A stretch of DNA of 64,000 nucleotides from a virus (IMGVR_UViG_3300029705_006930), one strand, 5' to 3'. Positions 110-56,765 are shown, numbered from the stretch's first letter. The notes: generated from the sequence alone by a model not told the origin. Numbers and translations are program-made.

Positions 110-1441
110 CTATATCTCATTTTCAATCTCCTCATCTTCATCGTTATATCGTATCGGACTACCTACGGGAAGCATCTCTAAAAATGCTGCTCCAGGCAAC
201 CAATATTTACTTCCATCATTTGTTCTTTTTGCAACTGAAAAATGTATGTGTGCTATGCGTCCTAAATAATCATCTCTGTGTTCCCAAAATTCTTTGCGTT
301 CTTCATCGCTATATCCAAGAGGCAGCACGACGTTGCTACCTTTATAATCAACTATAAAACTCTGCAGTATATCTTCATTTTCTTTTTTTGTGTAATCAAC
401 TATCATCAAATCTGCTTCATGCATTTGTCTTAGGTATAAGAAACTTTCACTGTTCTGTCGGTATTTATATAAGTCATAATCAAGATTAACTAAAATTCCT
501 GCGTATCCTTTTTCTTTGGCTACTCTGAATGCTTTTAAAATATTTCCTCTGTAACGTCCATTAAATAAAATCGGGGCAAGTTGTATATGTTCGGTAGGTG
601 TAAAATTCGTCTCTAAAAATGTTCGTCGGTCTTTATATATGTTTTTACATGTCTTACGGTTAAATTCTTTCAAAGATAATATGTCATAGATATAAAATAT
701 AATGTCACTTTTATCGCGCTCTGGCAGTCGGACTATCCATCGCTCTTTCATTCGGCGGTCATAAGGGGAGAGGTCTTTTGCATCCTCACCTTTATAAACA
801 AGTTCGCCATCAAATACCACTTCATCAAACGGCAAGTCATTAAATTCCTGCAAGAGTTCATCGAAGCCCTCAAGGACAATGCCGAAGCGTGTATACATTC
901 TTGCTTCGCCACATTCTTTGATAACAGCGCAGCGGGTGCCATTGTACCAACCGGAAACTGTGAACTGTCGCTGACGCACATAGTCTTCGTTACCATAGTA
1001 CAGCCCCGGCATCATCAATGGGATTTCATAAACAGTTCCCGCGCCATATACTGTATTGACCTGTTTGGCTGAAACATTTATTTCAAGGTCTCTCAGCACC
1101 GCATCAATCAAAAAGTCGTGGAGCTCAGCGGGGTAGAGGGTAAGAGAACCATGTATCTTTGCCACAGCTTTTTTATTACCCGCCCCCATATATGTCAGAT
1201 ATTCAAGCAGGTCATCACCTTCGCCTGTCACAAACGGCACAACGTCTTCGGCTGTAATTTCGGACGGCGCCCATTTATCAAAGATAAGGAAACGGCTTAA
1301 CCCAAGACGCGTTTTCCCAAACTGATACAATAAAAAGTCTGTCCACTTGGTATTTGTTGCATTACGGCGCAATATGCGTATTTTTTCATCATAAGATGTT
1401 GTGGCCGCCAACGCATCTGCAATTTGTTTAATTTCGTGTAT
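110..1441 (-). CDS. ATP-dependent DNA ligase-like protein with degenerate catalytic motifs (pseudo-ligase paralog of 55427-56749)
   Basis: Collinear with the ligase at 55427. VVFDGELV (motif III), IIFYIYDIL and the OB-domain end LGYSDEERKEFW are kept. Motif I reads SGWYNGTR (Lys to Trp), motif IV AGILVN (Glu to Ala) and motif V FLYLR. Start is set at ATA 1441, which lies 8 nt after GGGGG; the track's TTG at 1411 has no SD. Confidence 0.6.
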   Translation of the reverse strand: MHEIKQIADALAATTSYDEKIRILRRNATNTKWTDFLLYQFGKTRLGLSRFLIFDKWAPSEITAEDVVPFVTGEGDDLLEYLTYMGAGNKKAVAKIHGSLTLYPAELHDFLIDAVLRDLEINVSAKQVNTVYGAGTVYEIPLMMPGLYYGNEDYVRQRQFTVSGWYNGTRCAVIKECGEARMYTRFGIVLEGFDELLQEFNDLPFDEVVFDGELVYKGEDAKDLSPYDRRMKERWIVRLPERDKSDIIFYIYDILSLKEFNRKTCKNIYKDRRTFLETNFTPTEHIQLAPILFNGRYRGNILKAFRVAKEKGYAGILVNLDYDLYKYRQNSESFLYLRQMHEADLMIVDYTKKENEDILQSFIVDYKGSNVVLPLGYSDEERKEFWEHRDDYLGRIAHIHFSVAKRTNDGSKYWLPGAAFLEMLPVGSPIRYNDEDEEIENEI

Positions 1442-1455
1442 TTATATCGCCCCCT

Positions 1456-2409
1456 TTAAAATAATTCATCATCTGATATATCAGCGGAAATCTCTGCGAC
1501 TGCTTTTTGCGCATCAAGATATTCCTTAATTTCTGGCGGTAACTGTGATGTTACATATGTACGTTCATCAACAGTCATATTTCCAAGCTGTTTTTTGAAT
1601 TGATGATAGAATGCATTACAGTATTCCTGCTGCCAACAATAATTAGGCCGCAACAGATTGCTTGTATTGACAAAAATTGTCTTATGATTATGAAAAACAC
1701 CTTGTACAACAGCACTCATTGGTTTACCAAAGAATATCAATCCAAGCTCTTTTAACAATCCACATATTTCAGAAGTTGTTGATGAACTGTTATAACCTAG
1801 CCCATCCGCAATTTCACCTCGTGATATATACGCATAACGAGGTTGTTTTGACTGTGACTTGCGTTCATCTGCTACTTTGCCCTGATATATTAAAAATTTA
1901 ATATAGATATAATGTAACAATAAAGCTCGAAAGCCATATTTTTTGCCGACACCTAAAGACGCCGTCATCAAAGTCATATATTCACCCTGGGTAATAACTC
2001 GAAAGAACACTTTTATATTCTTATCTGTTTGTCCATTAAAAAACACTGGATTAAGACGGACTATTATTGCGGAACGATTGTCCTGAAATTTTGCTGCATT
2101 TAGAATGACATTGTTAGCATAGAAAAAATCAAGTACAGCATTTAAATTTTCAATATGAGCTTTGCGCACACTCTGAGCATGAATCCCGATATAATTGCAT
2201 AATATTTCAGGATTCACAATACTGATATTGCCATGAGTTTTACAAAACTGTAATCCACAAAATACTGTCAAACTGTTTGGTATAGCTAATTCCGCATCAA
2301 TCATCATTTGCGGAATAAATATTTTTAAATCTTTACAATCGTCTTGAATTGCCTCAGATAATATCTTTAATTCTTCTGTCATAAACCCTCCTTCATTTTT
2401 AGATGTCAA
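1456..2409 (-). CDS. hypothetical winged-helix-like DNA-binding protein with acidic C-terminus ISDDELF (possible replication or lysogeny factor)
   Basis: 317-aa ORF with an HTH-like stretch RGEIADGLGYNSSSTTSEICGLLKELGLI. Direct repeats lie just upstream of its start. Confidence 0.5.
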   Translation of the reverse strand: MTSKNEGGFMTEELKILSEAIQDDCKDLKIFIPQMMIDAELAIPNSLTVFCGLQFCKTHGNISIVNPEILCNYIGIHAQSVRKAHIENLNAVLDFFYANNVILNAAKFQDNRSAIIVRLNPVFFNGQTDKNIKVFFRVITQGEYMTLMTASLGVGKKYGFRALLLHYIYIKFLIYQGKVADERKSQSKQPRYAYISRGEIADGLGYNSSSTTSEICGLLKELGLIFFGKPMSAVVQGVFHNHKTIFVNTSNLLRPNYCWQQEYCNAFYHQFKKQLGNMTVDERTYVTSQLPPEIKEYLDAQKAVAEISADISDDELF

Positions 2410-2441
2410 AAATCTGCGCCTGCGTCGAAGATATATATACC

Positions 2442-2489
2442 TATATAAAGAGATACGTATATAAAGAGAAACCTATATAAAGAGATACG
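2442..2489. repeat. three tandem 16-bp direct repeats TATATAAAGAGAWAC(G)
   Basis: Copies at 2442-2457, 2458-2472 and 2474-2489, read directly, between the start of the 1456-2409 gene and the integrase stop. Confidence 0.8.
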
Positions 2490-2620
2490 ATACTCATATT
2501 TTTTATAAATAAAAAATATTCGTCCTGTGCCGTTGTGTTGTTGTTTGTTGCGTCGTGTTTTTTGCCGTTGTCACTGTGCCTTGTATGGTTACTGTGGGCT
2601 TTGTCTGTGTTCCTGTGTGC

Positions 2621-3442
2621 CTACCCATTTAATGCGCTGTCAATACTGTCCGCCATCGCATTAATTTCGCCCTGTGTTATTGTAAGGTATGTTTTTGTTA
2701 CGCGCTGGTCACTGTGCTTGTACTTTGCCTGCAAGATGTCCATAACACTGTCGTTGTTCATTGTTTTGCGCGCTGTGTATCCGTATGTTTTGCGCAGTGT
2801 ATGTGTTGCCACGTTCTGTGTGAGGCCCGCCGCCTTTGCACCTTTCTTTAAAATGTCCCACATTTGGTGCAGGCTCATTTGCCCGCCATTGTCACTTTTC
2901 TGGGACTTGATAAGGTAGTCGCTCATTGTATAGTTGCCGTTGAGATGTTCAATGTACATTTCAATGGCTTTTTTTGCGCCCGCTGTTATTTTGTTGCGAT
3001 TGTACTTGCCGGTCTTTTGTTCGTACACATCATAGTAATCTTTTACTGTACCATCCTCATTGAGAACGTCACTGATGCGCGCTCTGAGCAGGTCACTGCC
3101 TCTGTCCCCAATGGTGCAGCCAAACACTACCATCATATAATTGCGGTACTTGTGTCGGCCCCCATGTTCAAGGAAGTAGTTTGCGAGACGCTGAAATTCG
3201 TCCGCGCTGTAAAGAGGCTCTGCACTCTGTGCCTTTTTCACGCCATTGCTTTTGTAAGGCGACGCTGTTCTTGGTGCACGCTGTTTTGGCGCTGGCTTTG
3301 CTGCGGCCATTGCCTGAGCCACTGCATTTGCTATGATGCTCTGGAGCTCGTCCTGTGTCATTTGGAGCTTTGGTGCTGCCGCCTGTGCAGGAAAGTTGAT
3401 TGTATTATTCTGTACGTTTTGTTCTTTTGGCTGAGCGTTCAT
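2621..3442 (-). CDS. int: tyrosine recombinase / phage integrase (small, 273 aa)
   Basis: Catalytic-domain motifs are present: GDRGSDLLRARISDV (Arg), ATHTLRKTYGY (H-x-x-R) and HSDQRVTKTYL (His and the Tyr nucleophile). GGAGG SD. Confidence 0.8.
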   Translation of the reverse strand: MNAQPKEQNVQNNTINFPAQAAAPKLQMTQDELQSIIANAVAQAMAAAKPAPKQRAPRTASPYKSNGVKKAQSAEPLYSADEFQRLANYFLEHGGRHKYRNYMMVVFGCTIGDRGSDLLRARISDVLNEDGTVKDYYDVYEQKTGKYNRNKITAGAKKAIEMYIEHLNGNYTMSDYLIKSQKSDNGGQMSLHQMWDILKKGAKAAGLTQNVATHTLRKTYGYTARKTMNNDSVMDILQAKYKHSDQRVTKTYLTITQGEINAMADSIDSALNG

Positions 3443-4200: not shown

Positions 4201-4390
4201 GCTTTTTATGAGCCGAGAGTGAGATATAGCGACGCGTAGCTTATTATATACATTAAATCTGTCGCAAAGTCAAAATATCCCCCTACGGCAGTTTAAACCG
4301 CTTTATATCGGTAAATATCAACCTTTGTGAAAAGTTGATATTTTTTGTACAAAATTTTTCGATTTTTCAAAAATCGGACGCTTGTTGCTA

Positions 4391-4419
4391 TTGACAATCT
4401 GTCGCTCAGGATTTACAAT
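4391..4419 (+). promoter_or_regulatory. sigma-70-type promoter TTGACA-17 nt-TACAAT
   Basis: TTGACA at 4391-96, a 17-nt spacer, then TACAAT at 4414-19. Confidence 0.6.
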
Positions 4420-4424
4420 TTTAA

Positions 4425-4505
4425 GTGTAAACCGACAAGTTTACACCTACAATTCAATATATCTGTTGTGATTGTTCAAAGGGGGGTACAGATACACAAT
4501 CACAA
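4425..4505 (+). promoter_or_regulatory. two inverted repeats in the leader of the sigma-like gene (operator or 5'UTR hairpins)
   Basis: GTGTAAAC-N6-GTTTACAC (4425-46) sits at the predicted +1. TTGTGATTGT...ACAATCACAA follows at about 4464-4505. Confidence 0.5.
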
Positions 4506-4545
4506 AATCACACACTATTCAATATTTAAAGGAAGGTATTTATCT

Positions 4546-5241
4546 ATGAAAAAACTCACAAGAAAACAGCTTAAAGCAATAAAAAACACATCAAGCTACA
4601 AATATTTTGAACAATTGAAAACCCTTAAAGGCTCAATGCCGGCAGACAGCAAAAAAACCTATATAGAGCCAAATTCAGACCTTGAAAAATTCGCAAAATT
4701 GCAAGTTATGACCTTAAACAAATATATCCGCCAAGACGGCAAGGGACACAACTTGGCAGCACAAGTTTTGCAAGATTTACAACAGCAAGCTTGTTTGCTT
4801 ATTCTGGAAAACCCTTTAAGCCTTGACTGCTTTACAACAGAACAAGATAAACAGACAGAACAACAGCAACAAGCATTTAAGGCGGTTAAAAATGGTTTAT
4901 ATAGGTATTATTATCACAACTATACAAGCCGCAGCACATCTAAAATTCACAATAACCCGTCAAGTTACATTGCAACAGCTACATATCAAGCAACCGACGA
5001 TATCGGCAAAGATGCACGCGACAGCTATCAAATGGACCTTTACAAATTACATCTGGATGCAATTTTGACAATTTTAACAACGGATGAAAAATACATCTTT
5101 AATGGTTTATTTGTTGAAAACTTAACACAAAAACAACTTGCCGAAAAACTCAATAAATCACAAACTTATGTAGCAAAAACACTTGCAAATATCCGTAGCA
5201 AAATCAAAGCAAATGACCTTGATACACCGATAAACAATTAA
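4546..5241 (+). CDS. sigma-70 region-4-like HTH transcription factor (possible phage sigma factor)
   Basis: Start ATG 4546 after GGAAGG. The C-terminus LTQKQLAEKLNKSQTYVAKTLANIRSKIK resembles a region-4 HTH. Confidence 0.5.
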   Translation: MKKLTRKQLKAIKNTSSYKYFEQLKTLKGSMPADSKKTYIEPNSDLEKFAKLQVMTLNKYIRQDGKGHNLAAQVLQDLQQQACLLILENPLSLDCFTTEQDKQTEQQQQAFKAVKNGLYRYYYHNYTSRSTSKIHNNPSSYIATATYQATDDIGKDARDSYQMDLYKLHLDAILTILTTDEKYIFNGLFVENLTQKQLAEKLNKSQTYVAKTLANIRSKIKANDLDTPINN

Positions 5242-11866: not shown

Positions 11867-11913
11867 AGGAGAATACATATGAAAAAGATTTTTTAATTTT
11901 TTAAAAAAAGCTA

Positions 11914-11942
11914 TTGACAAATTGATATGTAAAGTGTATTAT
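11914..11942 (+). promoter_or_regulatory. sigma-70-type promoter TTGACA-17 nt-TATTAT
   Basis: TTGACA at 11914-19 and TATTAT at 11937-42. Confidence 0.6.
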
Positions 11943-11948
11943 GTAGTT

Positions 11949-12080
11949 GAAATAACATACAGCTCATCTTTTTGAGACTGCTTTATTTTTTACAATAATA
12001 ACATACAAATCATCTTTTGTAGCTTTTAATCCTTGATTAAGGAAATATTTTTTTTAAGCAAATAACACACAAATCATCTG
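11949..12080 (+). promoter_or_regulatory. three direct copies of the 19-nt motif ATAACAYACARMTCATCT(T)
   Basis: Copies at 11952-11970, 11998-12016 and 12062-12079. Two further copies lie at 39956-39974 and 40011-40029. Confidence 0.7.
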
Positions 12081-12098
12081 TCAAAAGGAGAAATTGCA

Positions 12099-12224
12099 AT
12101 GTTACGTATTGTTAATGATAGGGGACACCTCCTCGCATATTGCGGAAACAAATTTCTTGTTTCGGCAGACAACGAGCGCGAAATGCAAAAAGAACTTGCA
12201 GAGCTCGGTTACACAATGACATAA
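12099..12224 (+). CDS. hypothetical 41-aa protein
   Basis: AAAGGAGAA SD. First gene after the motif array. Confidence 0.45.
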   Translation: MLRIVNDRGHLLAYCGNKFLVSADNEREMQKELAELGYTMT

Positions 12225-12280
12225 AGGCAAGCCGGCCTTTATATATACAAACACTATTTTTTATAAAAGGAGATTTTAAA

Positions 12281-12727
12281 ATGGCAAAACTTAATCTTAC
12301 AGCAAATGTGCTGTCCCTTGAATCCGCACTTAAACTCGAAGATATCAAAAACGCAATGCGTTGGTGTCCAGATGCTCTCACAGTTATGGACGAAAAAGGC
12401 GAAGAAGAACTCTTCTCTGTTGCTGCAGGTACTTCAAAAGGTTATATCTCACCATACGGCATCACATTTGCTGCTGCAACAGTTCGTGGTGGTAAAGCTT
12501 GCTACACACGCGAAGTTGCACCAGGCACAGAAATGAAAGATATTGCTGAAGTTGTGCTCGCTGAATATGACAAACCAAAAGCATATCTTGAAGTTGTTGA
12601 AGCTCAGGTTGCTGAAGCTCTCGCAAAAGTTGCTGAACGTAGAACAGCTATTATGGCTGAACTTGCTGGCGAATGCGAATGTCCAGACTGCACACCAGAC
12701 TGTCCAACAGCACAGGGCGAAGAATAA
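12281..12727 (+). CDS. hypothetical protein with C-terminal CxCxxCxxxC cluster (first gene of Ubl/JAB/E1 cassette)
   Basis: ATG 12281 after AAAGGAG. C-terminus GECECPDCTPDCP. Confidence 0.65.
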   Translation: MAKLNLTANVLSLESALKLEDIKNAMRWCPDALTVMDEKGEEELFSVAAGTSKGYISPYGITFAAATVRGGKACYTREVAPGTEMKDIAEVVLAEYDKPKAYLEVVEAQVAEALAKVAERRTAIMAELAGECECPDCTPDCPTAQGEE

Positions 12728-12850
12728 TCTTCGCCCAACCTAAACAAACTTATCCGCAATTTAACCCAATATTTTCCATTAACATTAACAAACTTTTAAA
12801 CCGAAATCGTTAACAAACAAACTTAAACACATAAAAGGAGATTAAATATT

Positions 12851-13078
12851 ATGCTTAGAATTTATGTTGGTACAAACACAAACCGTACAGCTTACACACT
12901 TTCCCCAGAAACAACCCTCAGAGCAGCTTTTGAAACTGCAGGCGTGAACTATGAAATGGGTACCGCAACTCTTGATGGTTCCACACTTCAGCCGGGCGAC
13001 CTTGACAAGTCTTTTGCAGACTTCGGCATCACAGGTACAGCTTACCTCCTGAGCATTGTTAAAGCAAACAACGCTTAA
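12851..13078 (+). CDS. ubiquitin-like / ThiS-MoaD-like beta-grasp protein (75 aa), C-terminus KANNA
   Basis: Its size, alternating pattern and the LDGSTLQPGDLD...YLLSIVK segment resemble ThiS/MoaD. It sits in an operon with JAB and E1. There is no terminal GG. Confidence 0.5.
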   Translation: MLRIYVGTNTNRTAYTLSPETTLRAAFETAGVNYEMGTATLDGSTLQPGDLDKSFADFGITGTAYLLSIVKANNA

Positions 13079-13093
13079 TTGATTTTACCTATA

Positions 13094-13115
13094 GGGGCGG
13101 GAGCAATCCTGCCCC
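13094..13115 (+). other. stable 9-bp hairpin with GCAA tetraloop between the Ubl gene and the next gene
   Basis: GGGGCGGGA-gcaa-TCCTGCCCC. Confidence 0.7.
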
Positions 13116-13139
13116 AATCTTTAAAGAGAGGAGCTCAGT

Positions 13140-14540
13140 ATGGCACACACATTTAAAAAATGGATGATAAAAGCCATTCCATATGACAACTTGTTTGACA
13201 TATCGGTGGACTTTGAGAATCCATTCCCGACCGATAATCGTCGCGATGCTACACTCGCGGCTGCATTTCACTGTTTGATTAAAGACAGAATTCCAGAGGG
13301 GGTTAATCGCATTGTAGTGCGTGATATCCACTCATATGACTGCAACGTGAGAGACATTTTTGACTATTATGAGGTTGAAAATGGTTTCAAAAGTTGTATT
13401 TTTTACTACGCAGATTGGGACAATGTGAATCTGCAGAGCAAAATTACATTGCCAAATGAATGGGAAGCTCAGGAAATTGCAAGCAAATTTACTGGATGTT
13501 ATGTTACAAATCACGTATCAAAACAATTGATGGTTATCTTTATTCCGAGCAACTATAACCTTGAAACTTGGCATAGACTTGGTGCATTGTTACCAAAATA
13601 TCCAGTGCTCGAGGATATGTGGGCAGCAAAACCACTTACCGAAGATGAACTCAAGATGTTGAAATCACTGTCAACAGACGGTGTAGATTTTGACACATAT
13701 ATAAAAGCGTGGATTGCGACACTCGACCTGCGCACATCCGCAATCAAAAAAATGTTCAACAAATTCATTATTGATAACATCGAGGAACAGATACGCAATG
13801 CCGAAGATAGACGTAGAAGCCTTGAAAACAATATCACAGACTATGCTGCGAGACTGGCAAGGCTGTATAGCGACCTTGACGGTGTTATTGAAATGATAAA
13901 CCGTCTTATGATAGGTGATGACACTGTTGAAGAAAAAGAAAAGAGACTTATCGAATTCTTGTTAACAAACAAAAATGTTGAGCCAATCAGACGTCGCAAT
14001 GACCGCGTTGAATTCAATGTTCACGCAGCAATTGACTGTTGGGATAACGATATGTTCTCATCTTATATCAATAATCACAACAGTTTATTGTATCGCCATA
14101 CAAGCAGATATTCATATGACCAGTTGAAACGTTTTTATGAGCAGGCATTGTTTGCCGGTCGCTTTAAAATTCAGGGCATTGCTAAATTTGAAATTGCAGC
14201 AACAGGTAATGTGAGACCAATTTCAAAAAATGGGCATTGGCCATCAGCTGAAATCGAAAACTGTATTCCAAATACACATGTGGATAAATTCACTTGTATT
14301 GGTAATCACAGACGTATGCTGGATGATGCTGCAAAAATTCGTGACTATGAACAGGCAATTTTGATTGCTATTCAGATTACACAGTCAGTTAACTGGTCGG
14401 ATGGTGCAGTTATGAATCACTTTATTCCTGAAGTGTTGCACTGTGAACGTCCAATTCTTACAGACAGAACAGGCAATACATACACTGTTGCACAGGTAAT
14501 AAGCATACTTGATGCCGAAATAAAGGAGGTTGAAAAATAA
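13140..14540 (+). CDS. hypothetical 466-aa protein of the Ubl cassette (central coiled coil, function unknown)
   Basis: GAGAGGAG SD. Overlaps the JAB gene as ATAATG. Confidence 0.7.
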   Translation: MAHTFKKWMIKAIPYDNLFDISVDFENPFPTDNRRDATLAAAFHCLIKDRIPEGVNRIVVRDIHSYDCNVRDIFDYYEVENGFKSCIFYYADWDNVNLQSKITLPNEWEAQEIASKFTGCYVTNHVSKQLMVIFIPSNYNLETWHRLGALLPKYPVLEDMWAAKPLTEDELKMLKSLSTDGVDFDTYIKAWIATLDLRTSAIKKMFNKFIIDNIEEQIRNAEDRRRSLENNITDYAARLARLYSDLDGVIEMINRLMIGDDTVEEKEKRLIEFLLTNKNVEPIRRRNDRVEFNVHAAIDCWDNDMFSSYINNHNSLLYRHTSRYSYDQLKRFYEQALFAGRFKIQGIAKFEIAATGNVRPISKNGHWPSAEIENCIPNTHVDKFTCIGNHRRMLDDAAKIRDYEQAILIAIQITQSVNWSDGAVMNHFIPEVLHCERPILTDRTGNTYTVAQVISILDAEIKEVEK

Positions 14541-15475
14541 TGAAACCAATAAGATTGACCGATGATGTAAAAGCGGCTATTCTTGATAAATTTGCAAAAC
14601 AGCTGAGCACGGTTGTACGTGCTTCAACTATTACATTCACACATACGCCAACAGTGGTAAGCACACCGTTAGGCAAAGATGAAAAAGTGCTGATTACTTA
14701 TACAGCAGAAGCATTCCGCAAGCAGCAGATGCTTATTCAGAGTTTTGACAGTGAAGTGGCTTGGCACGGTGTTGTTGAACGTGAAGATGCAAAGCATTTT
14801 ATTATTACAGATATCGTAGTATATCCCCAGACTGTTACCGGCTCAACTGTTGAGATGGACGAAGACAAATATGCTCTTTGGACAATTCAGTTCGGTCGTG
14901 AACACGGCGAAGAAACATTCCAGAAACTGCGTATGCAGGGACATAGCCACGTGAATATGGAATGTTTTGCAAGTGGTACAGACTCTAAACACCAGGATGA
15001 CATCTTGGCAACAACTGACCCAAATGGGTTCTATATTTTCATTATTGCCAATAAAAAAGGCAAATTCTGGAGCACTATTTTCGACCTCGAAGCAAATGTT
15101 CAGTATGAAAATGCTGACATCGAAATCGAGTATGAGGAAGATGAGTACGATGAATTTGTAAGTGCAGCAGAAAGTGTGGTTGTAAAAAAGACTTATACAC
15201 CACCTTACAACTATGGCAATGGCTATCACAACAACGGAGCAGGGTATTCATACGGGGCAAGCGCTTATTCTCAGAAGCCACCTCAGACTCCGCCTATGCC
15301 AGTGCTTCCGACAAATACACAGCCAAAAACAAGCACAAACGAAACAAACACAAAGGCAAACACAAACACAAAAAAGGACGATAAATCCATTGAAGAAGAT
15401 ATCACCAATCTTATTCAGATGTCATTGAACGATATGGAATGGGATGAAGTTGGTGGATGGACAAGCAAAATGTAA
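14540..15475 (+). CDS. JAB/MPN+ (JAMM) metallopeptidase with Pro/Thr/Asn-rich C-terminal region
   Basis: DSEVAWHG (Glu) followed by HSHVNMECFASGTD, which fits H-x-H-x7-S-x2-D. Confidence 0.8.
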   Translation: MKPIRLTDDVKAAILDKFAKQLSTVVRASTITFTHTPTVVSTPLGKDEKVLITYTAEAFRKQQMLIQSFDSEVAWHGVVEREDAKHFIITDIVVYPQTVTGSTVEMDEDKYALWTIQFGREHGEETFQKLRMQGHSHVNMECFASGTDSKHQDDILATTDPNGFYIFIIANKKGKFWSTIFDLEANVQYENADIEIEYEEDEYDEFVSAAESVVVKKTYTPPYNYGNGYHNNGAGYSYGASAYSQKPPQTPPMPVLPTNTQPKTSTNETNTKANTNTKKDDKSIEEDITNLIQMSLNDMEWDEVGGWTSKM

Positions 15476-15484
15476 GGAGAAATT

Positions 15485-16174
15485 ATGGACTTAAGTAAAT
15501 CACTTGACTGGTTTAATCCAGACAGCGTTTCGGAACGCATACATATTATCGGATGCGGTAGTGTAGGTAGTACAGTTGTGGAACTGTTGGCAAGATTCGG
15601 TCTTACAAAGTTCACTCTGTATGATTTTGACCTTGTTGAACCTCACAATATCGCAAACCAGATGTTCAGAAAAACGGACATTGGTAAAACAAAAGTTGAA
15701 GCATTGCAGCAGATTGTATGTGAAATCAATCCAGAGGCGGGCAAAGATATTAAACTTGAACCAGAAGGTTGGCACGGACAGCAGTTGTCTGGCTATGTAG
15801 TTCTTGCTGTTGATAGCATTGAATTGCGTAAAAAGATTTGTGAAGGTTTGCAGATGAATATCTTTGTTAAAGCTGTGTTTGATTTCCGTACAAGTTTGCT
15901 CAACGCACAGCATTATGCAGCCAATTGGCAGGACAAAAAACATCGTGATGACCTCATTGCAACAATGCAGTTCACCGATGAAGAAGCTGCGGCTGAAAAC
16001 CCAGTATCAGCGTGTGGTGTAACACTTGGTGTCGCACCAACAGTAAGACTGATATGCACACTAGGCGTAAGCAATATGATGAACTTTTTCAGAGAAAAGA
16101 AATTGAAAAAAGTTGTATTGGCAGACGCATTTAATTTTGATGCTGACCCTATGGTATTACCTATGGGTCAATAA
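15485..16174 (+). CDS. ThiF/MoeB/E1-like adenylyltransferase
   Basis: IIGCGSVGSTVVELLARFGL...LYDFDLVEPHNIANQ is a Rossmann GxGxxG and adenylation motif. Confidence 0.8.
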   Translation: MDLSKSLDWFNPDSVSERIHIIGCGSVGSTVVELLARFGLTKFTLYDFDLVEPHNIANQMFRKTDIGKTKVEALQQIVCEINPEAGKDIKLEPEGWHGQQLSGYVVLAVDSIELRKKICEGLQMNIFVKAVFDFRTSLLNAQHYAANWQDKKHRDDLIATMQFTDEEAAAENPVSACGVTLGVAPTVRLICTLGVSNMMNFFREKKLKKVVLADAFNFDADPMVLPMGQ

Positions 16175-16216
16175 TACACAATAAGAGAAATGTTTATGGT
16201 GAATATTGCACATTGT

Positions 16217-16500
16217 ATGGCAAGCTTTTGCTGTTAGCAGAAGTAAAGAAATGGTAGAGAACATAGAGGCAGGCGCTTAAGGAGCACGCTGAGGTGATTC
16301 CTAAGTACTGCAGCTTCTTGCATCCGACGAGCTCTGAAAAGGTAGGTTTAACAGGAGGATTGGATTACTTACAAGTGAAATTAACCAGTTCAAACCGTAA
16401 AGCTCATCTGAAATTAACGATAAATCCCAGATTTGCATCTCTTTTATCCGGGAATGAAGGGCTTAAAACTATAGCTAGACCATAAACAAGATAGGGAGGA
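16217..16500 (+). ncRNA. structured non-coding leader upstream of the RT (module A)
   Basis: Hairpin at 16225-43, GAAATGGTAG at 16248, enclosing stem 16217-24/16317-23. No SD-led ORF. Confidence 0.5.
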
Positions 16501-16504
16501 CATT

Positions 16505-17860
16505 ATGGTTTATATCACATATCCAGCACCTAACAAATTTCATCAGATTACATTTGAAGAAATGATGTCGGGCAATGTTAATACAGATAAATTAAGAATT
16601 TTAGGCGGACATAATACGCTTACTTTGCATCTTAACGATGTACCTGCAAACTTAAAAGGTCAGACTTCTGTACGCAAAATGATTGCAGATTTGCAGTATT
16701 TTGTAGGTGTATATTATGACACACTGATGCCACAGATAAAAGAATTTGAGAAGCTTTCAGATGCTCAGCGTCGCAGCGTCAAACAGCGTGACAAGATTGA
16801 AAATTATTTTGAACAGATGGGCGCAACTGCAAATGATGAAGACTTGCAGAAAATCACTGAACAGGTAGATGCGCTGCAGTGTGAAGTTGCAGAACAGCAG
16901 TATAAATATGCTTACTATACATTCGATTTGCGCAAAAGTTCAGCGCCGGAACACATTCCATTGTGGCGACTGCCAAAAGAATACAGACGTACAATCAATG
17001 CTCCGAACATACATCTTAAAAATGCGCTATATGAACTTAAAGAACTGTTTGAAAATATGATGATACGTACATATCATACTGCATCATTTGCGTATGTTAA
17101 ACATCGTGGAACTTTGGATGCTGTAAAACGTCATCAGAGCTGGGAAAGCAAATGGTTTGCAAAGTTTGACTTTTCAGATTTCTTTGGTAGCACAACAATT
17201 GACTTTGTTATGCAACAGTTCTCTCAAATATATCCGTTTAATATGATTTGTGCATATAAAGATGGTAAAGAAGCTCTTTATAAAGCATTGCAGTTGTGTT
17301 TTTTGGACGGTGGACTTCCACAGGGCACACCTATTAGTCCTCTCATCACAAACATAATGATGATACCATTTGACCACGCAATGTCAAAAGCTCTTAAAGA
17401 ATTTAAATATCCAAACAAACACGGTAGTGAACGTTTTGTGTATACAAGATATGCTGATGACCTGCTTATCAGTTGCCGTGTGGATTTTAAAGTGGAAATT
17501 ATTCAGGCATTTATTCTGGAAACTTTAAAATCAATGAATGCGCCTTTTAGCCTTAACGTTAAGAAAACTCGTTACGGTTCTAGTGCAGGTAGCAACTGGA
17601 ATCTTGGGGTGATGCTTAACAAAGACAATAAAATTACAATCGGTGCAGAAAACAAGCGCAGACTTAAAGCTTCTTTGAATTCATTTATCCTTGATATGAA
17701 GAATGAAAAACCTTGGGATATTTCTATGGTGTATAGACTCAGAGGTCAGATTTCTTATTATCGTAATGTGGAAAGGGAAGCAACAAATAACATCATTGCA
17801 GCGATGAACACAAAATATGGTGTTGATGCAGAAGCAATGATGAAATCTATTATAAGTTAA
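16505..17860 (+). CDS. reverse transcriptase, retron/UG(DRT)/Abi-like, with about 190-aa N-terminal extension
   Basis: KFDFSDFF, LPQGTPISPLITN, YTRYADDLLIS, KKTRYG, LGVML and a thumb-like RLRGQISYYRNV occur in order. GGGAGGA SD. Confidence 0.85.
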   Translation: MVYITYPAPNKFHQITFEEMMSGNVNTDKLRILGGHNTLTLHLNDVPANLKGQTSVRKMIADLQYFVGVYYDTLMPQIKEFEKLSDAQRRSVKQRDKIENYFEQMGATANDEDLQKITEQVDALQCEVAEQQYKYAYYTFDLRKSSAPEHIPLWRLPKEYRRTINAPNIHLKNALYELKELFENMMIRTYHTASFAYVKHRGTLDAVKRHQSWESKWFAKFDFSDFFGSTTIDFVMQQFSQIYPFNMICAYKDGKEALYKALQLCFLDGGLPQGTPISPLITNIMMIPFDHAMSKALKEFKYPNKHGSERFVYTRYADDLLISCRVDFKVEIIQAFILETLKSMNAPFSLNVKKTRYGSSAGSNWNLGVMLNKDNKITIGAENKRRLKASLNSFILDMKNEKPWDISMVYRLRGQISYYRNVEREATNNIIAAMNTKYGVDAEAMMKSIIS

Positions 17861-17879
17861 TTTAATTTTTATATATTGA

Positions 17880-18790
17880 ATATCACAGTCATTGTGAAGT
17901 GTTGATGTTATCGGCACTAACGAAATGGTAAGAAAGTATGGCAGGAAGGCCCGCAGGTTCATGATGAAGACGCGTGCGAGCTTACAGCTCCAGCATAAAA
18001 ATTAGAAATGCTGGTACAATGAAAAGGAAGAAAATCATGAACGAAAGCCATACTTTCCAACATCCACAAAACCACGAATTTAAAACGCTTCATTACTCCG
18101 CGACCCTCCGCCAGGAGGGCCCGGGCGCGGTAAAGCGTCAAATAAATAATTGAGAATATATAAAAAAACTTTATTGAATATCTTTAAATTTGTACATAAA
18201 TTTAAGAACTGTTGCTGTTAGCAGCAGTGTCAAACGAACAGGATAAATAAAGAAATACAAATTTCTTTATTTAAATAACTTCTTAGCGTCGTAAGGCGCG
18301 ATGCTCCGACATCGCTCATGACGACGCCAAAGTTATTGAGAATAAAGTTAAAAAAATAATAAGAAAAATAAACAGTGTATATTTGCATAGCAAAGCTATT
18401 GATGTAATCAGTAGTACAGAAATGGTAGGAAAGATTACACGGGACGGTGTCGCCGGTGAGGAGCCACCTCCTTTGCAAACCCCTGCAATATTTCTAAAAC
18501 CTAATTAAAACTATGTCCGAATGGTCAAACATAACAGGAGGACTGAGAAACATCACCTGAAGGATACCAACTGAACCCCCAGTTCAGATGACACGACAGC
18601 TGGAGAAATCTAGACCCATGGGATGGTGATTCAACATTAAATTACAATTCAGACTGTTTATTGCTTTATAGTTTTTGCCAAGCTACGAAAACTCCAAATA
18701 ATGAGTAGTGTGTGACATAAAAGCCAAGCCTCGTCAACTCCCTTTCGGGGCTTGGTAAAGACTATAAAACAAACAATTTAAGTAAAGGAG
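17880..18790 (+). ncRNA. about 0.9 kb structured non-coding region downstream of the RT (modules B, D, C plus long hairpins)
   Basis: Module hairpins at 17899-917, 18209-27 and 18396-414. Long hairpins at 18086-18138, 18245-72 and 18273-18335. No convincing ORF. Confidence 0.5.
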
Positions 18791-48333: not shown

Positions 48334-49006
48334 ATGCAGAATTATCATTGCCATACCAGTTATAGTAATTTGTTTTCATTTGACTCTATTGCATCTTATG
48401 AAGATTATGCAAAACGAGCTCAGGAACTTGGGCACAAAGTTATTTCATCTGTCGAACACGGCTGGCAATGTAATTATTATGTACCATATGGCATAGCTCA
48501 AAAATATGGATTGAAATTTGTTTTTGGTACAGAAGCATATTGGGTAAAAGACAGGATAGAAAAAGATAATAAGAATAACCATATTATTATTCTTGCAAAA
48601 AATGAAAACGGCAGACAAGCCATAAATGATATTTTAGCAGAAGCTAATATTACAGGTTACTATTATAAACCACGTTTGGATACAAAACTGATTCTGTCTT
48701 TACCCGCCAATGATGTCTTTATTACAACAGCATGTGTTGGATTTTATGGATATGGTTTTGAAGAAAGTGAAAAATTTATTGTTCAGTTGCATAAGCACTT
48801 TAAAAATAATTTTATGCTTGAAATTCAAAATCATAATACTGACAAGCAAAGAGAATTAAATAACCAAATTAAAAAGTGGTCAAAAAAATACAATATTGAA
48901 ATGATTGTTGGGTTAGATAGTCATTATATATATCCAGAGGATGCTGGTCTTCGTGATGAAGCTCTTAAATCAAAAGGCATTATTTATGAAGATGAATCTG
49001 GTTGGT
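48334..49006 (+). CDS. dnaE: DNA polymerase III alpha (DnaE-type), exon 1 / PHP domain
   Basis: YHCHTSYSN, SSVEHG and HIIILAKNENG. The frame stops 8 codons after the proposed splice site. Confidence 0.8.
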
Positions 49007-49275
49007 ATTCTAAATGCCGTTTAATTTAGTAATAAATTAAATAATTACTGGGGAAAATCGGTGAAGTCCTCCAATGATATAGGATAATACCGAGGTAAAC
49101 AATAAAATTGCGTAAGGTTTATTGTCACCGTAGAGCATAGATAGTGAATAAATATAATCTATCCAAGAGTCTCCAGCATCCCACCTAAATATAGAGGATG
49201 AAAATATATGCCGAGCTTACATAATGGAAAAATGTAAGAACTATGGGGTAAAAAACCTATAGGATAACAAAACTG
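49007..49275 (+). mobile_element. putative ORF-less group I intron (3' boundary 49263 or 49275)
   Basis: P1-like hairpin 49004-49018 with a U-G wobble at 49006/49016. Several internal hairpins. A G precedes both candidate 3' sites, and either one restores the TAT codon and the frame. Confidence 0.5.
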
Positions 49276-51809
49276 ATATGGACTATCCCTCTGACAATGA
49301 ATGCATAAAGCGTTTTTTAGACCAAGGAATTTTTACTGAGACAGAAATTCAACGTGCAATGGATAACACAGATATCTGCTTAACATTTGAGAATTTTTAT
49401 TTTAGTAAAGATATTAAACTACCAACTTTATATCCAGACAAGACTCAAGAGGAAAAGAACAAGATATATTCAAGACTGATTACAAAAAAGTTTAAAGAAT
49501 ATATGAAATATGTTCCTGCTGAAGACTATGACAGATATTATCAAGGTGTTAAAGAAGAAGTTCAGGTATATAAAGATACTGGTATGGTTGACTATCCGCT
49601 AATCAACTATGAAGTTATTAAGCGCGGGATTGAATTGGGCGGGGTAATTACAGATAGTGGACGTGGTTCCGCTGTTGGCTTCTTCACAAACACATTGTGT
49701 GGATTCTCAAAAGTTGACCGTTTTACATCTGCAATTCATCTTTATCCAGAGCGCTTTATGTCAACAAGCCGAATATTAGAGTCCGGCTCCCTACCAGATA
49801 TTGACTTTAACGTAGCTAATACTGAGCCTTTTGAACGAGCACAAAAAGAAATACTTGGAGAAGAACATTCATATCCAATGATTGCATTTGGCACTTTGAA
49901 AAAGAAATCTGCTTTTAAGCTTTATGCAAGAGCAAAAGATGTGCCAGCTGCCATTGCAAATGAAATCACAAAACAGATTGAAAAATATGAAAATGATTTA
50001 AAACATGCCGATGATGATGACAGGCGCGATATAAATATCTATGACTATGTAGATGAACAGTATCATGACCATTTGAGACAGAGTGAATCATATTGGGGTA
50101 TCATTTCTGACCGCAAAAAAGCTCCATCGGCACATCTCTTATATCAAGGCAATATTCGTAAAGAAATTGGGCTCATTAAATGTAAGAGTGAAAGTACCAA
50201 GAAGGAATGCATCACTTGTGTTATTGATGGTGCAGTCGCAGAAGAATATAAATTTTTGAAAAATGACCTGCTCACTGTAAATGTGGTGGATATTATTGAC
50301 CGTGTTTTTAAACGTATTGGCATTGAGCATTTTAATGTAAATACATTGTTGGGACTTATTAAAAATGATAAACCGACTTGGGATATTTATGCTAAAGGTT
50401 TGACTATAGGTGTTAACCAATGTGAAAAAGCCTCAACAACAAAAAAAGCAATGCGATATAAACCACGAAACCCATCTGAGCTCTCGGCATTTATAGCAGG
50501 TATTCGTCCAGGCTTTAAATCAATGTATCCGATTTTTGAAAGTAGACAGCCGTTCTCATATGGAGTTGCTACACTGGATAATCTGCTGATTACCGAAGAA
50601 CTTCCGATTCCCTTTATGATTTTCCAGGAACAGACAATGAAAGTCCTTAACTATGCTGGATTTCCAATGGACGAATGCTATGGTCTTATTAAAGCTATCA
50701 GTAAAAAGAAACCAGAAAAGGTAAAAGCAATCAAAGATGATTTTATTAAAAATTTCTGCAAACAAATTCAAGAAGATAATGGACTTGATTTTGAAATTGC
50801 ACAAAATAACAGTGAAAAAGTATGGACAGTAGTAAATGATAACTCAGGTTATGCATTTAACAGTTCTCATGCATACTGTATGGCGTTGGATAGCTTATAT
50901 TGTGCTTATCTCAAATCTCACTATCCTTATGAATTTTATGAGGTACTTCTCACATTTTATTCCAACAAAGGCAACAAAGATAAAGTTGCTGAACTGAAAA
51001 GAGAAATGCTCCAAGGTTTTGGTATCAGAGAAGGCAAGTTTAAGTTTGGCAATGATAATCGCAGCTTTAAAGCCGACAAAGAAAACGGTGTTATATATTC
51101 ATCACTATTATCATTAAAAAATATGAACCAGAAATGTTCTGAGGACTTATATGCTTTATCACAAAAAAAACAATATACAAACTTTTTTACACTGCTCAAA
51201 GATATTAAACAACTTAAGAGTCTGAAATCTGACCAGCTTAATATTTTGATTAATATTGGATATTTTGATGATTTTGGTACAGTCCCACAGATTCAGACAT
51301 TTGTAAAAGCATATGACGACCTTTATGGACGAGCTCAATTTTCCAAAGATAATCTGGATGCTAATTATGCAGCACTTATTGCTGCTGACAGTACGCAGAC
51401 TGAAAAACAATATCGCAACTTTGATTATGAAAATGCATTGCATAAATTGTGGATGCAAATTCCGCCAATTAAATTAGGTTTGCATCAGAAAATTAAAAAC
51501 GAACTTGAATATTTTGGATACATACAAACAATCATACCAAAGCTCTCAGATGAATATGTAGTCGTAACTGATAAGATTGACAAATATTCGAAACTGACGG
51601 TCACGGTTTATGTATTACAGACTGGAGCAATTCATACTTATCGAATGCGAAGCAGAGTTGCAGAGCAATGCGGAACAATTAATGTGGGCGATATTATTAA
51701 ACTGATGAAGTTTAGCGAAGAAAAGAAATGGACAAAAAATGTCAACGGAGATTGGGTACACACAGATGAAACCGAAACACTCATTAAAAAATATGCACTG
51801 ACAAGATGA
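49276..51809 (+). CDS. dnaE: DNA polymerase III alpha (DnaE-type), exon 2 / polymerase core
   Basis: GRGSAVGFF...VDRF...PDIDFNV (palm), then the finger and OB-like regions. Confidence 0.85.
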
Positions 51810-56749: not shown

Positions 56750-56765
56750 TAGATGGGGGAATAAA

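Follow-up and report, generated by a model that had tools for sequence, protein, structure and literature searches.

In type I Bub systems a JAB-E1 protein cleaves a fusion of a ubiquitin-like protein (Ubl) with an E2 (PMC11601596), and in phages lambda and T1 the TAPI Ubl precedes a C-terminal domain in one fusion protein, from which the JAB peptidase TAPK is predicted to release it (PMC1779556). Retrons have been classified into 13 types, in a scheme where ubiquitin, ThiF and JAB are not mentioned (PMC7736814). We have found no description anywhere of a Ubl kit combined with a retron-type reverse transcriptase (RT).

The locus described here, part of a 64,000-nucleotide stretch of viral DNA that was analysed as a whole (the window), carries the two side by side. 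Its protein cassette and the region just 5' of it comprise the following features.

11914..11942, + strand: promoter-like site, the best sigma-70-like match (TTGACA-17-TATTAT, 11/12)
12281..12727, + strand: g1, partner protein, 148 aa, beta-rich with a C-terminal helix of ~40 aa
12851..13078, + strand: g2, ubiquitin-like beta-grasp protein, 75 aa, ending K-A-N-N-A (family motif K-x-D-N-A)
13140..14540, + strand: g3, candidate E2, 466 aa, alpha/beta at the N-terminus (1-150), then a coiled coil (~155-276) and, at the C-terminus, a domain that is possibly UBC/RWD-like (~263-466)
14540..15475, + strand: g4, JAB/MPN+ metallopeptidase, 311 aa, with E72, H135-S-H137, S145 and D148 and a low-complexity Tyr/Gly-rich tail
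15485..16174, + strand: g5, compact ThiF/E1-like adenylating enzyme, 229 aa, with GCGSVG, D47, D49, N55, N58-Q59, K70, D110 and S175-A176-C177

The five linked, co-oriented open reading frames reported in an earlier, sequence-only reading were all found as described, at 12281-16174 of the window, and follow one another tightly (gaps of 123 nt and 61 nt, a 1-nt overlap and a gap of 9 nt). The same order and strand recur in 125 other loci, drawn from viral contigs, metagenome assemblies and MAGs, an arrangement that is far beyond chance. The unit does not end at 16174, however, as that reading had it, but continues to ~18662: directly downstream of g5 lie a strictly linked retron-type RT gene and four RNA units, which had been overlooked and which alter what kind of system the cassette is. 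The proposed phage setting is supported, the module being part of a large gut phage of Firmicutes type, in its early/replication region. The sigma-70-like match, in the 414-nt gap 5' of g1, is a possible module promoter, although this is a positional hint only, the total count of promoter-like sites being the same as in shuffled sequence. On balance we lean towards reading the whole as a single conserved phage module, six genes with an RNA array, in which a self-contained Ubl conjugation system is joined to a retron.

Comparison with described systems

Kinship with PRTRC, Bil and CBASS modules had been suggested for the cassette, and is not supported by comparison with the family models. The TIGR03736 (PRTRC_ThiF) score is 31.4 bits, where the cut-off is 144.75, and no other PRTRC model and no ParB model matches any of the eight proteins tested at E<=0.1. 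Like PRTRC, the module comprises several genes, among them one of the ThiF family, and is borne by a mobile element. None of the Bil, Bub and CBASS models matches g1-g4; in PADLOC these four proteins match nothing, and g5 matches, over its first ~70 residues, the E1-E2 (Cap2) models only. By sequence, then, the cassette does not belong to PRTRC, Bil, Bub or CBASS, and four of the five cassette proteins are covered by no Pfam, NCBIfam, PHROG or PADLOC model.

Likeness to CBASS Cap2/Cap3 lies in the presence of a JAB partner and in the nucleotide-binding region of g5, which is closest to Cap2-type E1s. This protein matches the PADLOC E1-E2 models at E-values down to 3e-17 and NCBIfam 6A-MBL cap2_3 at 1.4e-18; the score against the latter, the only one of these models with a curated cut-off, is 66.8 bits against 320, and the matches span ~70 residues. 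In contrast to CBASS, the module has no CD-NTase or effector (neither CD-NTase nor DUF6527 is found among the Pfam-annotated neighbours of loci L001-L004), its E1 is not fused to an E2, and its substrate is a true beta-grasp Ubl. Bil differs in other respects. Its proteins have no sequence-level relationship to g1-g4; BilD has an IAD-AAD-CYS architecture (PMC11601596), whereas g5 is a minimal, single adenylation domain of 229 aa; and in the present module the putative E2-like domain ends a 466-aa coiled-coil protein, the Ubl ends D-N-A, there is an extra partner, g1, and the whole is phage-borne and retron-linked.

Type I Bub (6E.1 / DUF6527) resembles the module in having its Ubl as an N-terminal fusion that needs a JAB cut, and in having a minimal, homodimer-type E1 that resembles UBA5 and ThiF. 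The fusion partner here is g1, however, which is not UBC-like, and JAB and E1 are separate genes; both g5 and g3 conserve a Cys, where Bub relies on oxyesters of Tyr and Ser; and the module lacks a DUF6527/BubE protease and has its predicted cleavage site after Ala, not Gly. With TAPI and TAPK it shares a phage-encoded Ubl fusion and a JAB peptidase, but those proteins belong to a tail module without E1 or E2 and their Ubl ends in Gly, whereas here the Ubl gene lies in an early/replication region, accompanied by genes for an E1, a putative E2-like protein and an RT.

The ubiquitin-like protein, its partner and its enzymes

The 75-aa g2 had been proposed as a beta-grasp protein, and its family indeed has this fold (beta-beta-alpha-beta-beta-3(10)-beta). 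Its members do not end in the Gly-Gly, or Gly, of Ubl modifiers. Their conserved tail is K-x-D/N-N-A, after which come 0-3 variable residues or a fused protein; in 36 distinct Ubls, K-x-D-N-A either closes the protein or precedes R, A, LAA, TSK or VVM. The KANNA end of the window protein, earlier called atypical, is an instance of a conserved motif, which we read as one for processing and activation: the tail appears to keep the processing logic of a Ubl, not its residue identity. An alanine after asparagine at a Ubl C-terminus is nevertheless unusual and weighs against our main reading; Cap2 adenylates a C-terminal alanine, in ...GRFA (10.1101/2022.03.31.486616).

Natural fusions of the Ubl with g1 occur in at least 120 protein clusters. 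The window g2 matches fusion residues 1-75 and residues 2-128 of the window g1 match fusion residues 76-202, the junction being the point of lowest pLDDT in the model. The two parts are joined exactly between ...DNA and the A that follows, implying that the JAB protein processes the Ubl at this site. The g1 protein itself has no relative in Pfam, NCBIfam, PHROG, PADLOC or the PDB, and the residues invariant in its family, besides the initiator Met, are Ser, Leu, Glu, Gly, Phe and Ala. The CxCxxCxxxC motif with which it had been said to end is present (C-E-C-P-D-C-T-P-D-C), but near the C-terminus rather than at it, and this Cys-rich tail is peculiar to the window protein, its homologues being without it.

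In g4, the JAMM residues E72, H135, H137, S145 and D148 are invariant among 30 homologues, and a match of the family profile to Rpn11 (E=5e-4) brings the two motifs into register, confirming the intact E...HSHx7SxxD motif noted before; the Pfam JAB models all fall below threshold. The protein is predicted to be a Ubl-processing and/or deconjugating enzyme. The identification of g5 as ThiF/E1-like is supported, and its nucleotide-binding and Mg-Asp residues are kept: Pfam ThiF (PF00899) matches at E=1.4e-20 (74 bits, cut-off 28.1), and the family conserves G23-C-G25-x-x-G28, D47, D49, K70 and D110. Canonical E1s, such as MoeB, ThiF and Uba sequences, have the motif N-x-x-R-Q. The g5 family reads H-N-[IL]-[AV]-N-Q, where Asn replaces the phosphate-binding Arg, a departure that weighs against our main reading; UBA5, the best PDB match of g5, shows N-M-N-R in the alignment. 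The invariant S175-A176-C177 resembles, in sequence, the context of UBA5 C250, the residue given as the catalytic Cys of that enzyme (PMC11601596).

Could this C-terminal chemistry serve something other than protein tagging? The E1 might act on a sulfur carrier of the ThiS/MoaD type, or as an MccB-like peptide-nucleotide synthase after the JAB protein has exposed the conserved Asn. We consider this very improbable. Most Ubls of the family have Ala rather than Asn as their last residue, and the fusion junction follows an Ala; sulfurtransferase, rhodanese, ThiG/MoaE and export or immunity genes are not conserved near the cassette loci; the partner enzymes expected of a sulfur-carrier pathway are absent; and conjugation systems are marked by the pairing of a JAB protein with a UBC/RWD-like protein that carries a Cys.

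The central coiled coil attributed to the 466-aa g3 is backed by a long helix in its model, residues 209-257, and by PDB sequence matches to coiled coils only. That the cassette holds no recognisable E2 is true in so far as HMM and hhalign comparison detects no similarity of g3 to E2s and Foldseek finds no significant match in the PDB; it is not the whole account, since the C-terminal domain of g3 is a candidate E2. His380 and Cys386 are invariant in 70 g3 sequences that are only 18-31% identical to the window protein, and P377, N378, P379 and G388 are near-invariant, P379 being Thr in the window. The Asn lies 8 residues and the His 6 residues upstream of the Cys, in the order found in E2s, where the catalytic Cys follows an HPN-type Asn/His by ~8-10 residues, a correspondence at the level of sequence. 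In UbcH5, the Asn of HPN is likewise 8 residues ahead of the Cys. A role for this domain as an E2-like carrier is moderately supported. The invariant Cys with its upstream Asn and His argues against conjugation without an E2, in which g3 would be a scaffold, target or sensor with a non-catalytic RWD-type domain and either the E1 would transfer the Ubl directly or g1 would be the carrier. The g1 family has neither a conserved Cys nor a His partner for one, its fold does not resemble UBC, and we judge such a scheme unlikely.

The reverse transcriptase and the RNA units

Downstream of g5 the window contains the following.

16191..16488, + strand: ncRNA unit U1, msr/msd-like; a1 at 16191-16200 (TGTTTATGGT), then an invariant G; a2 at 16479-16488 (ACCATAAACA), after AG
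16505..17860, + strand: retron-type reverse transcriptase, 451 aa, YADD motif, matching retron family profiles
17867..18165, + strand: ncRNA unit U2; a1 TTTTATATATT, then G; AG, then a2 AATATATAAAA; weak covariance-model match, E=0.28
18167..18349, + strand: ncRNA unit U3, short; a1 AACTTTATT, then G; AG, then a2 AATAAAGTT; weak covariance-model match, E=0.1
18367..18662, + strand: ncRNA unit U4; a1 AATAAACAGT, then G; AG, then a2 ACTGTTTATT; weak covariance-model match, E=0.022

The top matches of the RT are all retron RT models, placing it in the retron clade, with group II intron RT behind at 3e-20. They include NCBIfam retron St85 (E=1e-46, though its 159.5 bits lie below the curated cut-off of 235) and PADLOC RT_II-A (E=2e-41), with I-A and III-A also among the top matches; Pfam RVT_1 matches at E=3.7e-18. 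The window protein has an N-terminal extension of ~145 aa ahead of the model start, which is ~70-75 aa shorter in most relatives. Within the phage collection, the nearest RT outside the module is 27% identical, and the one cassette-linked record in that collection 40%. E1 and RT are often separated by inserted genes unrelated to the module, DUF6273 among them.

Of all gene families at the 126 loci, g1-g5 and the RT alone are near-universal, each occurring in 114-125 of them, whereas the other neighbours are variable and none is found in more than 54. Among the 113 loci informative for this count, those with >=3.5 kb after E1, the RT is present in 110. The distance matrices of g3, g4, g5 and RT correlate with rho 0.84-0.89, the RT keeping step with the cassette genes as closely as these do with one another, although part of this could come from shared phage ancestry; all the loci come from related gut phages, whose phylogeny is shared. 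The two parts might alternatively be independent, a Ubl/JAB/E1 module and an ordinary retron, its effector elsewhere or absent, that are adjacent only through that ancestry. The shared phylogeny and the genes inserted between E1 and RT favour such independence, as do three loci (L085, L114 and L119) that keep the cassette with no RT within 6-7 kb, from which it follows that the Ubl part may work alone. Yet in one locus (L104) the RT is placed between JAB and E1, and in the loci compared no retron-effector-like gene other than the cassette is conserved beside the RT. With the near-constant presence of the RT, these observations make independence improbable, and we retain the reading of a single module.

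Each RNA unit has the retron layout, with covarying terminal inverted repeats a1 and a2 and a conserved G directly after a1. U1 runs from a1 and G through two conserved stem-loops and a variable region to AG and a2, and ends 16 nt before the RT start; across loci, the RT-adjacent units end about 17-33 nt 5' of the RT start codon. The covariance model gives 177 matches, on the coding strand in every case. An exact a1/a2 pair of >=7 nt occurs in 160 of 202 distinct units, compared with 24% of shuffled controls, and 139 of these 160 have AG ahead of a2. Pairing is better between matched than between mismatched arms (p=2e-10), and stem-loop 2, of 9 pairs, shows compensatory changes in seven. The fold of U1 in the window is no more stable than shuffles (z = -1.0).

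The units might instead be another kind of structured RNA, such as regulatory leaders, processing sites or Ubl-protein-binding RNAs, with the RT using a different template. They number one to four per locus, in tandem and on both sides of the RT, some of them far from it; loci without an RT still carry one unit directly after E1; the units have no match in Rfam; and no natural arrays of retron ncRNAs were found in the literature. The covarying terminal repeats with their conserved G, the closeness of the RT-adjacent unit to the RT start codon and the exclusively retron best matches of the RT make this rather doubtful, and we prefer to see the units as msr/msd-like. The module then resembles retrons of the St85/type II-A kind in its tripartite logic, conserved accessory genes adjoining RT and ncRNA. 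It differs from them in its one to four flanking units, in an RT that scores below the St85 cut-off and has an N-terminal extension, in accessory genes that are a Ubl/E2-like/JAB/E1 set, and in being carried in the early region of a phage.

A proposed mechanism and its meaning

We propose that the g2 Ubl is made with a short C-terminal extension or fused ahead of g1, and that the g4 JAB protein would cut after ...K-x-D/N-N-A, exposing a C-terminal alanine, as the conserved motif and the natural fusions suggest. By the chemistry of its family, the g5 E1 would adenylate the exposed carboxylate and probably load the Ubl on Cys177, from which it may pass to Cys386 of the g3 E2-like domain and then to lysines of target proteins. 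The g1 protein could be a partner, an adaptor or the first target of tagging, and the JAB enzyme could make the modification reversible. From part of the RNA units that a1 and a2 close, the RT would make small DNAs, and the resulting RT-RNA-DNA complex might, like that of other retrons, act as sensor or regulator, and possibly scaffold, for a Ubl-machinery effector, a coupling suggested by the observed genetic linkage.

What is this arrangement for? A Ubl kit, comprising tag, trimming peptidase, activating enzyme and probable E2-like carrier, is nearly always inherited with a retron-type RT and one to four RNA copies. As a guess, it most likely serves in conflict, tagging proteins of the host or of rival phages for counter-defence or inter-phage exclusion; the counter-defence or superinfection exclusion suggested in the earlier reading may thus hold. 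A bolder idea, which we hold to be a long way from probable, is that retron and Ubl machinery form one mechanism, in which small DNAs from the unit array direct, gate or receive the Ubl tag. If so, these DNAs might be scaffolds that choose targets, decoys whose loss triggers tagging, or parts of covalent Ubl-nucleic-acid conjugates, and gut phages would own a nucleic-acid-programmed protein-modification system.

The gene block and its phage setting

The five co-oriented genes that the sequence-only reading had placed at 12281-16174 are all present in the ORF list of the window. That interpretation was only partly right. The actual unit is larger and more unusual: a retron-type reverse transcriptase (RT) and an array of RNA units, tightly linked to these genes, were overlooked. 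We conclude that the window carries, at 11900-18700, a module of ∼6.8 kb in which a divergent, probably complete, ubiquitin-like (Ubl) conjugation system with a non-Gly-Gly terminus is joined to a retron-type RT and an array of non-coding RNAs (ncRNAs). The five genes, here called the cassette, are as follows.

12281-12727, plus strand: g1, 148-aa partner protein
12851-13078, plus strand: g2, 75-aa Ubl, C-terminus KANNA
13140-14540, plus strand: g3, 466-aa protein, candidate E2
14540-15475, plus strand: g4, 311-aa JAB/MPN+ peptidase
15485-16174, plus strand: g5, 229-aa ThiF/E1-like adenylating enzyme

Intergenic distances are 123 nt (g1-g2), 61 nt (g2-g3) and 9 nt (g4-g5), and g3 and g4 overlap by 1 nt. 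Searches of NCBIfam, Pfam, PHROGs and PADLOC, both with single proteins and with whole family alignments, recognised the ThiF and RT proteins only, and a promoter and terminator scan of the window gave site counts no higher than in shuffled sequence.

The genomic contexts of JAB homologues, obtained from exact-protein look-ups, 223 IMG/VR contigs (80 fetched) and 41 MAG contigs, yielded 125 loci beyond the window, 126 in total. The MAG contigs are binned mostly as Oscillospiraceae, Ruminococcus, Acutalibacteraceae and other Clostridia, and come from the guts of human, ruminant, rabbit, horse and termite. When every ORF in the loci was labelled with iterated HMMs, the order g1-g2-g3-g4-g5 on a single strand emerged nearly everywhere. 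When the flanks of the 126 loci were clustered all-against-all, six families proved near-universal: g4 (125 loci), g3 (122), g5 (120), g1 (116), g2 (114) and the RT (114). Any further real gene family occurs in at most 54 of the 126, the sole other high counts being antisense shadow ORFs that overlie the six genes. Among uncultured gut phages the cassette is both widespread and conserved as a unit. Megablast with the cassette DNA against 50,697 phage records gave no match; in tblastn searches of this collection with the JAB or RT protein, the sole record with a close, cassette-linked homologue was the unannotated faecal phage MT835544.1. One copy, in a 244-kb Oscillospiraceae MAG contig (L125, 6950-9510), is broken up and apparently decayed, with short pieces of g3, g4, g5 and RT, and may be a degraded prophage.

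The window is a phage early/replication region: a sigma-like factor and FolD are encoded there, together with an AAA_24 ATPase, primase, DnaB, a PD-(D/E)XK nuclease, ThyX, ribonucleotide reductase (RNR), a split DNA polymerase III alpha, ligases and two recombinases, one a tyrosine integrase and the other a large serine recombinase. Identity of the window's Pol III alpha to its counterparts in phages of 130-176 kb is 36-39%. The phages compared are Firmicutes siphoviruses, among them Geobacillus virus E3, Bacillus phage pW2 and Lactococcus phage WRP3, and a human faecal phage with an unannotated 176-kb record; tblastn found no JAB homologue in the named isolates. A minus-strand block at 110-3442, encoding an ATP-dependent DNA ligase and the tyrosine integrase, lies ahead of a long plus-strand block that opens with a sigma-70 region-4-like protein (4345-5241), and the serine recombinase (62420-64000) extends past the window end. 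With two recombinases, the phage may be temperate or mosaic. Pol III alpha is divided into a PHP-like ORF (48334-49029) and a polymerase core (49278-51809) ∼250 nt apart. Judged from translations, 55427-56749 appears to hold a second ligase-like ORF, and an RNR-like gene (56628-60246) is apparently broken into ORFs at 56628-58085 and 59278-60246; between these halves lies an ORF (58424-59182) whose motifs are Cys-rich and HNH-like, which suggests that an intron or homing endonuclease has been inserted there.

The predicted conjugation proteins

The assignment of the 229-aa g5 as a ThiF/E1 protein is borne out by matches to Pfam PF00899 (E=1.4e-20), to the NCBIfam ThiF (6e-21) and 6A-MBL Cap2-like (1.4e-18) models, and to PADLOC CBASS E1-E2 models (down to 3e-17), all of which point to a clear ThiF/E1 domain. 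The sequence-only reading would have counted missing active-site residues against an E1. Invariant throughout the family are GCGxxG, D47, D49, N55, N58-Q59, K70, D110 and S175-A176-C177; the Arg of the canonical N-x-x-R-Q motif is, unusually, replaced by Asn. The nearest relatives of solved structure are UBA5 (5e-8), Uba1, MccB, Cap2, TcdA and MoeB, and we infer that the S-A-C triplet occupies the position of the UBA5 catalytic Cys context. Sulfur-carrier or MccB-like chemistry on the Ubl, in place of protein tagging, is an unlikely function for such an enzyme here. For the JAB peptidase g4, no model in NCBIfam, Pfam, PHROGs or PADLOC matches, and all 427 homologues found by search are unnamed. 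An alignment of 30 homologues has the JAMM residues E72, H135, H137, S145 and D148 invariant, and its profile matches Rpn11 (E=5e-4) with the JAMM motif in register, upholding the earlier view of a JAB with an intact motif.

The C-terminus of the Ubl, previously described as atypical, proves to be a conserved motif, [V/Q]-K-x-D-N-A over 36 distinct sequences, of which the window has the variant N-N-A. In 16 cases the protein ends with the motif, and in others R, A, LAA, TSK or VVM comes after it. The Ubl can also precede g1 within one polypeptide of ∼205 aa; such fusions occur in two of the fetched loci and in at least 120 clusters of the protein collection. Window g2 matches such a natural fusion gap-free over residues 1-75 (51% identity) and g1 residues 2-128 match fusion residues 76-202, and the fusion boundary therefore falls exactly after the motif, at D-N-A/A. 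An AF2 model of the natural fusion (pLDDT 88) comprises a classical β-grasp (residues 1-70), in agreement with the fold originally proposed for the 75-aa protein, a low-confidence junction linker, and g1 as a β-rich domain with a 40-residue helix at its end. The variable tails and fusions imply endoproteolytic maturation of the Ubl, for which the JAB is the obvious candidate protease, presumably cleaving after the Ala. Precedent exists for both features: in type I Bub operons a JAB-E1 protein cuts a Ubl-E2 fusion (PMC11601596), and the bacterial E1 Cap2 adenylates a substrate with a C-terminal Ala, ...GRFA (10.1101/2022.03.31.486616). The conserved D-N-A end is a departure from the Gly-Gly rule, and g1 an additional, new Ubl-fusion partner.

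The CxCxxCxxxC stretch noted earlier at the end of g1 is present in the window but not conserved: the Cys-rich tail (12668-12727, GECECPDCTPDCPTAQGEE) is missing from all homologues examined, and may have been added in this lineage for metal binding or a redox function. In two loci, L114 (4849-6343) and L119 (713-2209), the g1-g2 pair is duplicated.

Where is the E2? The sequence-only reading saw none and sequence-level searches agree, but a candidate E2-like domain lies within the 466-aa g3. Pattern searches of viral contigs found no close relatives of this protein and a word-indexed search only a near-identical twin (98%); an exhaustive HMMER search was required to reveal its family, 1052 clusters (50% identity) of uniformly ∼480-aa proteins. 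Among 70 aligned sequences, only 18-31% identical to the window protein, H380 and C386 are invariant and P377, N378, P379 and G388 nearly so. The family motif is P-N-P-H-I-x-x-Y-x-C-L-G, the window reading P-N-T-H with Thr at 379. In the AF2 model (pLDDT 89) an α/β domain (1-150) and a long coiled coil precede a C-terminal domain consisting of a helix, then four strands that include an insert, the loop with N378 and H380, Cys386 and three helices, a predicted order of elements that matches the UBC fold. The order of Asn/His then Cys and the 8-residue Asn-Cys spacing would also fit an E2. A papain-like peptidase, in which Cys precedes His, would have the opposite order. Foldseek of the model against the PDB gave no E2 match, an HMM search of the PDB with the g3 profile gave coiled-coil noise only, and hhalign against the human E2s UBE2D2, UBE2N and UBE2I was negative. 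Given these results, we grade g3 as a probable, not proven, E2-like carrier.

A retron-type reverse transcriptase and its RNA units

The RT and four msr/msd-like RNA units (U1-U4) follow g5 directly.

16191-16488, plus strand: U1, RNA unit upstream of RT
16505-17860, plus strand: RT, 451 aa, retron RT family matches
17867-18165, plus strand: U2, RNA unit directly after RT
18167-18349, plus strand: U3, RNA unit after RT
18367-18662, plus strand: U4, RNA unit after RT

The best matches of the RT are all retron RTs, namely the NCBIfam St85 family (1e-46, under the curated cut-off) and PADLOC RT_II-A (2e-41), compared with only 3e-20 for the group II intron RT model. U1, 298 nt long, begins 16 nt past the E1 stop, with the RT beginning 16 nt past U1, and the ends of U1 form a perfect inverted repeat of 10 nt (16191-16200 with 16479-16488). 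In the loci compared, ∼17-33 nt separate the 3′ arm of this repeat (a2) from the RT start, and the 5′ arm (a1) is found 250-350 nt upstream. Each of the four tandem units in the window has an a1/a2 pair of its own.

The evidence for the RNA units is comparative, not energetic: U1 is thermodynamically no more stable than its shuffles, and an Rfam search of the window gave no family match. The arms vary in sequence from locus to locus with their complementarity kept, and pairing is better within loci than when arms are exchanged between them (p=2e-10). An alignment of 20 sequences has an invariant G immediately after a1, at 16201 in U1, and a downstream stem-loop of 9 pairs shows compensatory changes in 7. 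A covariance model of the 5′ part of the unit found 177 matches in 100 sources, always on the coding strand, with 1-4 units per locus on both sides of the RT. An exact a1/a2 pair of its own, of at least 7 nt, is present in 160 of 202 distinct occurrences, versus 24% in shuffled controls; AG precedes a2 in 139 of these 160 units, whose median length is 282 nt. Judged by sequence, the units have the layout that defines retron msr/msd RNAs, and they form a natural array. Engineered retron arrays already serve multiplex genome editing, and a literature search for natural ones returned engineered arrays only. Searches for retrons with ThiF, ubiquitin-like or JAB proteins, and for phage-encoded retrons, gave nothing relevant.

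Is the RT part of the system? It is found in 110 of the 113 loci with 3.5 kb or more of sequence after E1, and its position is kept despite intervening unrelated genes, such as the DUF6273 gene inserted in 42 loci. In L104 (8885-11625) the E1 gene is preceded, not followed, by the RT gene, which separates it from the JAB gene. Pairwise distance matrices of g3, g4, g5 and RT correlate with rho of 0.84-0.89; divergence of the RT follows that of the cassette as closely as the cassette genes follow each other. In the phage collection a close RT (40% identity) occurs only in the record that likewise encodes the JAB; the next best is 27% identical, and the other 27 tblastn matches reach at most ∼28% identity. 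Against this, three loci (L085, L114 and L119) have no RT within 6-7 kb; each retains one RNA unit right after E1. On balance, a functional linkage of the RT to the cassette is likely but not proven. In L114 and L119, which have no RT within 6 kb, the retained unit lies 13 nt past the E1 stop, and L085 has an IscB-like HNH protein downstream. The DUF6273 protein (∼270 aa; 11618-12418 in L001, 11602-12474 in L004, and 40 other loci of the 126) is absent from this position in the window, and some loci have a second DUF6273-like gene upstream of g1.

Proposed action and relation to known systems

We propose that, once the JAB has trimmed the Ubl to its Ala, the E1 would adenylate it and pass it by thioester relay from E1 C177 to g3 C386 and on to target lysines. 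The RT would make msDNA, and by analogy with tripartite retrons the retron part may be coupled to the Ubl part. The module may act in phage-host or phage-phage conflict, as suggested by its early-region location and by NAMPT, phosphoribosyltransferase and isochorismatase (NAD-salvage-type) and RtcB genes a few kb downstream in related loci. This set, with the isochorismatase nicotinamidase-like, lies 6-10 kb downstream of the cassette in L001-L004 (16601-20906 in L001, 19062-20897 in L004); its resemblance to NAD salvage and RNA repair suggests a counter-defence neighbourhood. Least certain in this scheme are the E2 assignment of g3, whether the retron is functionally coupled to the Ubl part, and what biological role the module has.

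The likeness to Bil, CBASS Cap2/Cap3 and PRTRC remarked on at first does not extend to membership, since the module fails sequence and partner-gene tests for each of these systems and for Bub. Bil is nearest by function and architecture, having separate Ubl, E2, JAB and E1 genes; the logic of fusion and cleavage resembles that of type I Bub, and Cap2-type E1s are the closest sequence relatives of g5. With retrons the module shares RT clade and ncRNA architecture, but it differs in an RT below the St85 subfamily cut-off, in multiple ncRNA units, and in an accessory set that is not among the 13 retron types, for which ubiquitin, ThiF and JAB are not mentioned (PMC7736814). Both halves of the module are of known kinds. 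Novelty lies chiefly in their combination, and also in the protein families, the D-N-A terminus, the g1 partner and the natural RNA array.

The near-obligate linkage of RT and ncRNA array to the cassette would represent a new class of retron 'effector' and the first natural retron array. To our knowledge, bacterial Ubl conjugation (Bil, Bub, CBASS Cap2/3) has so far been known as a weapon of the host against phages, whereas here phages themselves carry the conjugation kit, with their own Ubl, peptidase, E1 and probable E2. The module could reveal how phages rewrite the proteomes of their hosts or rivals.
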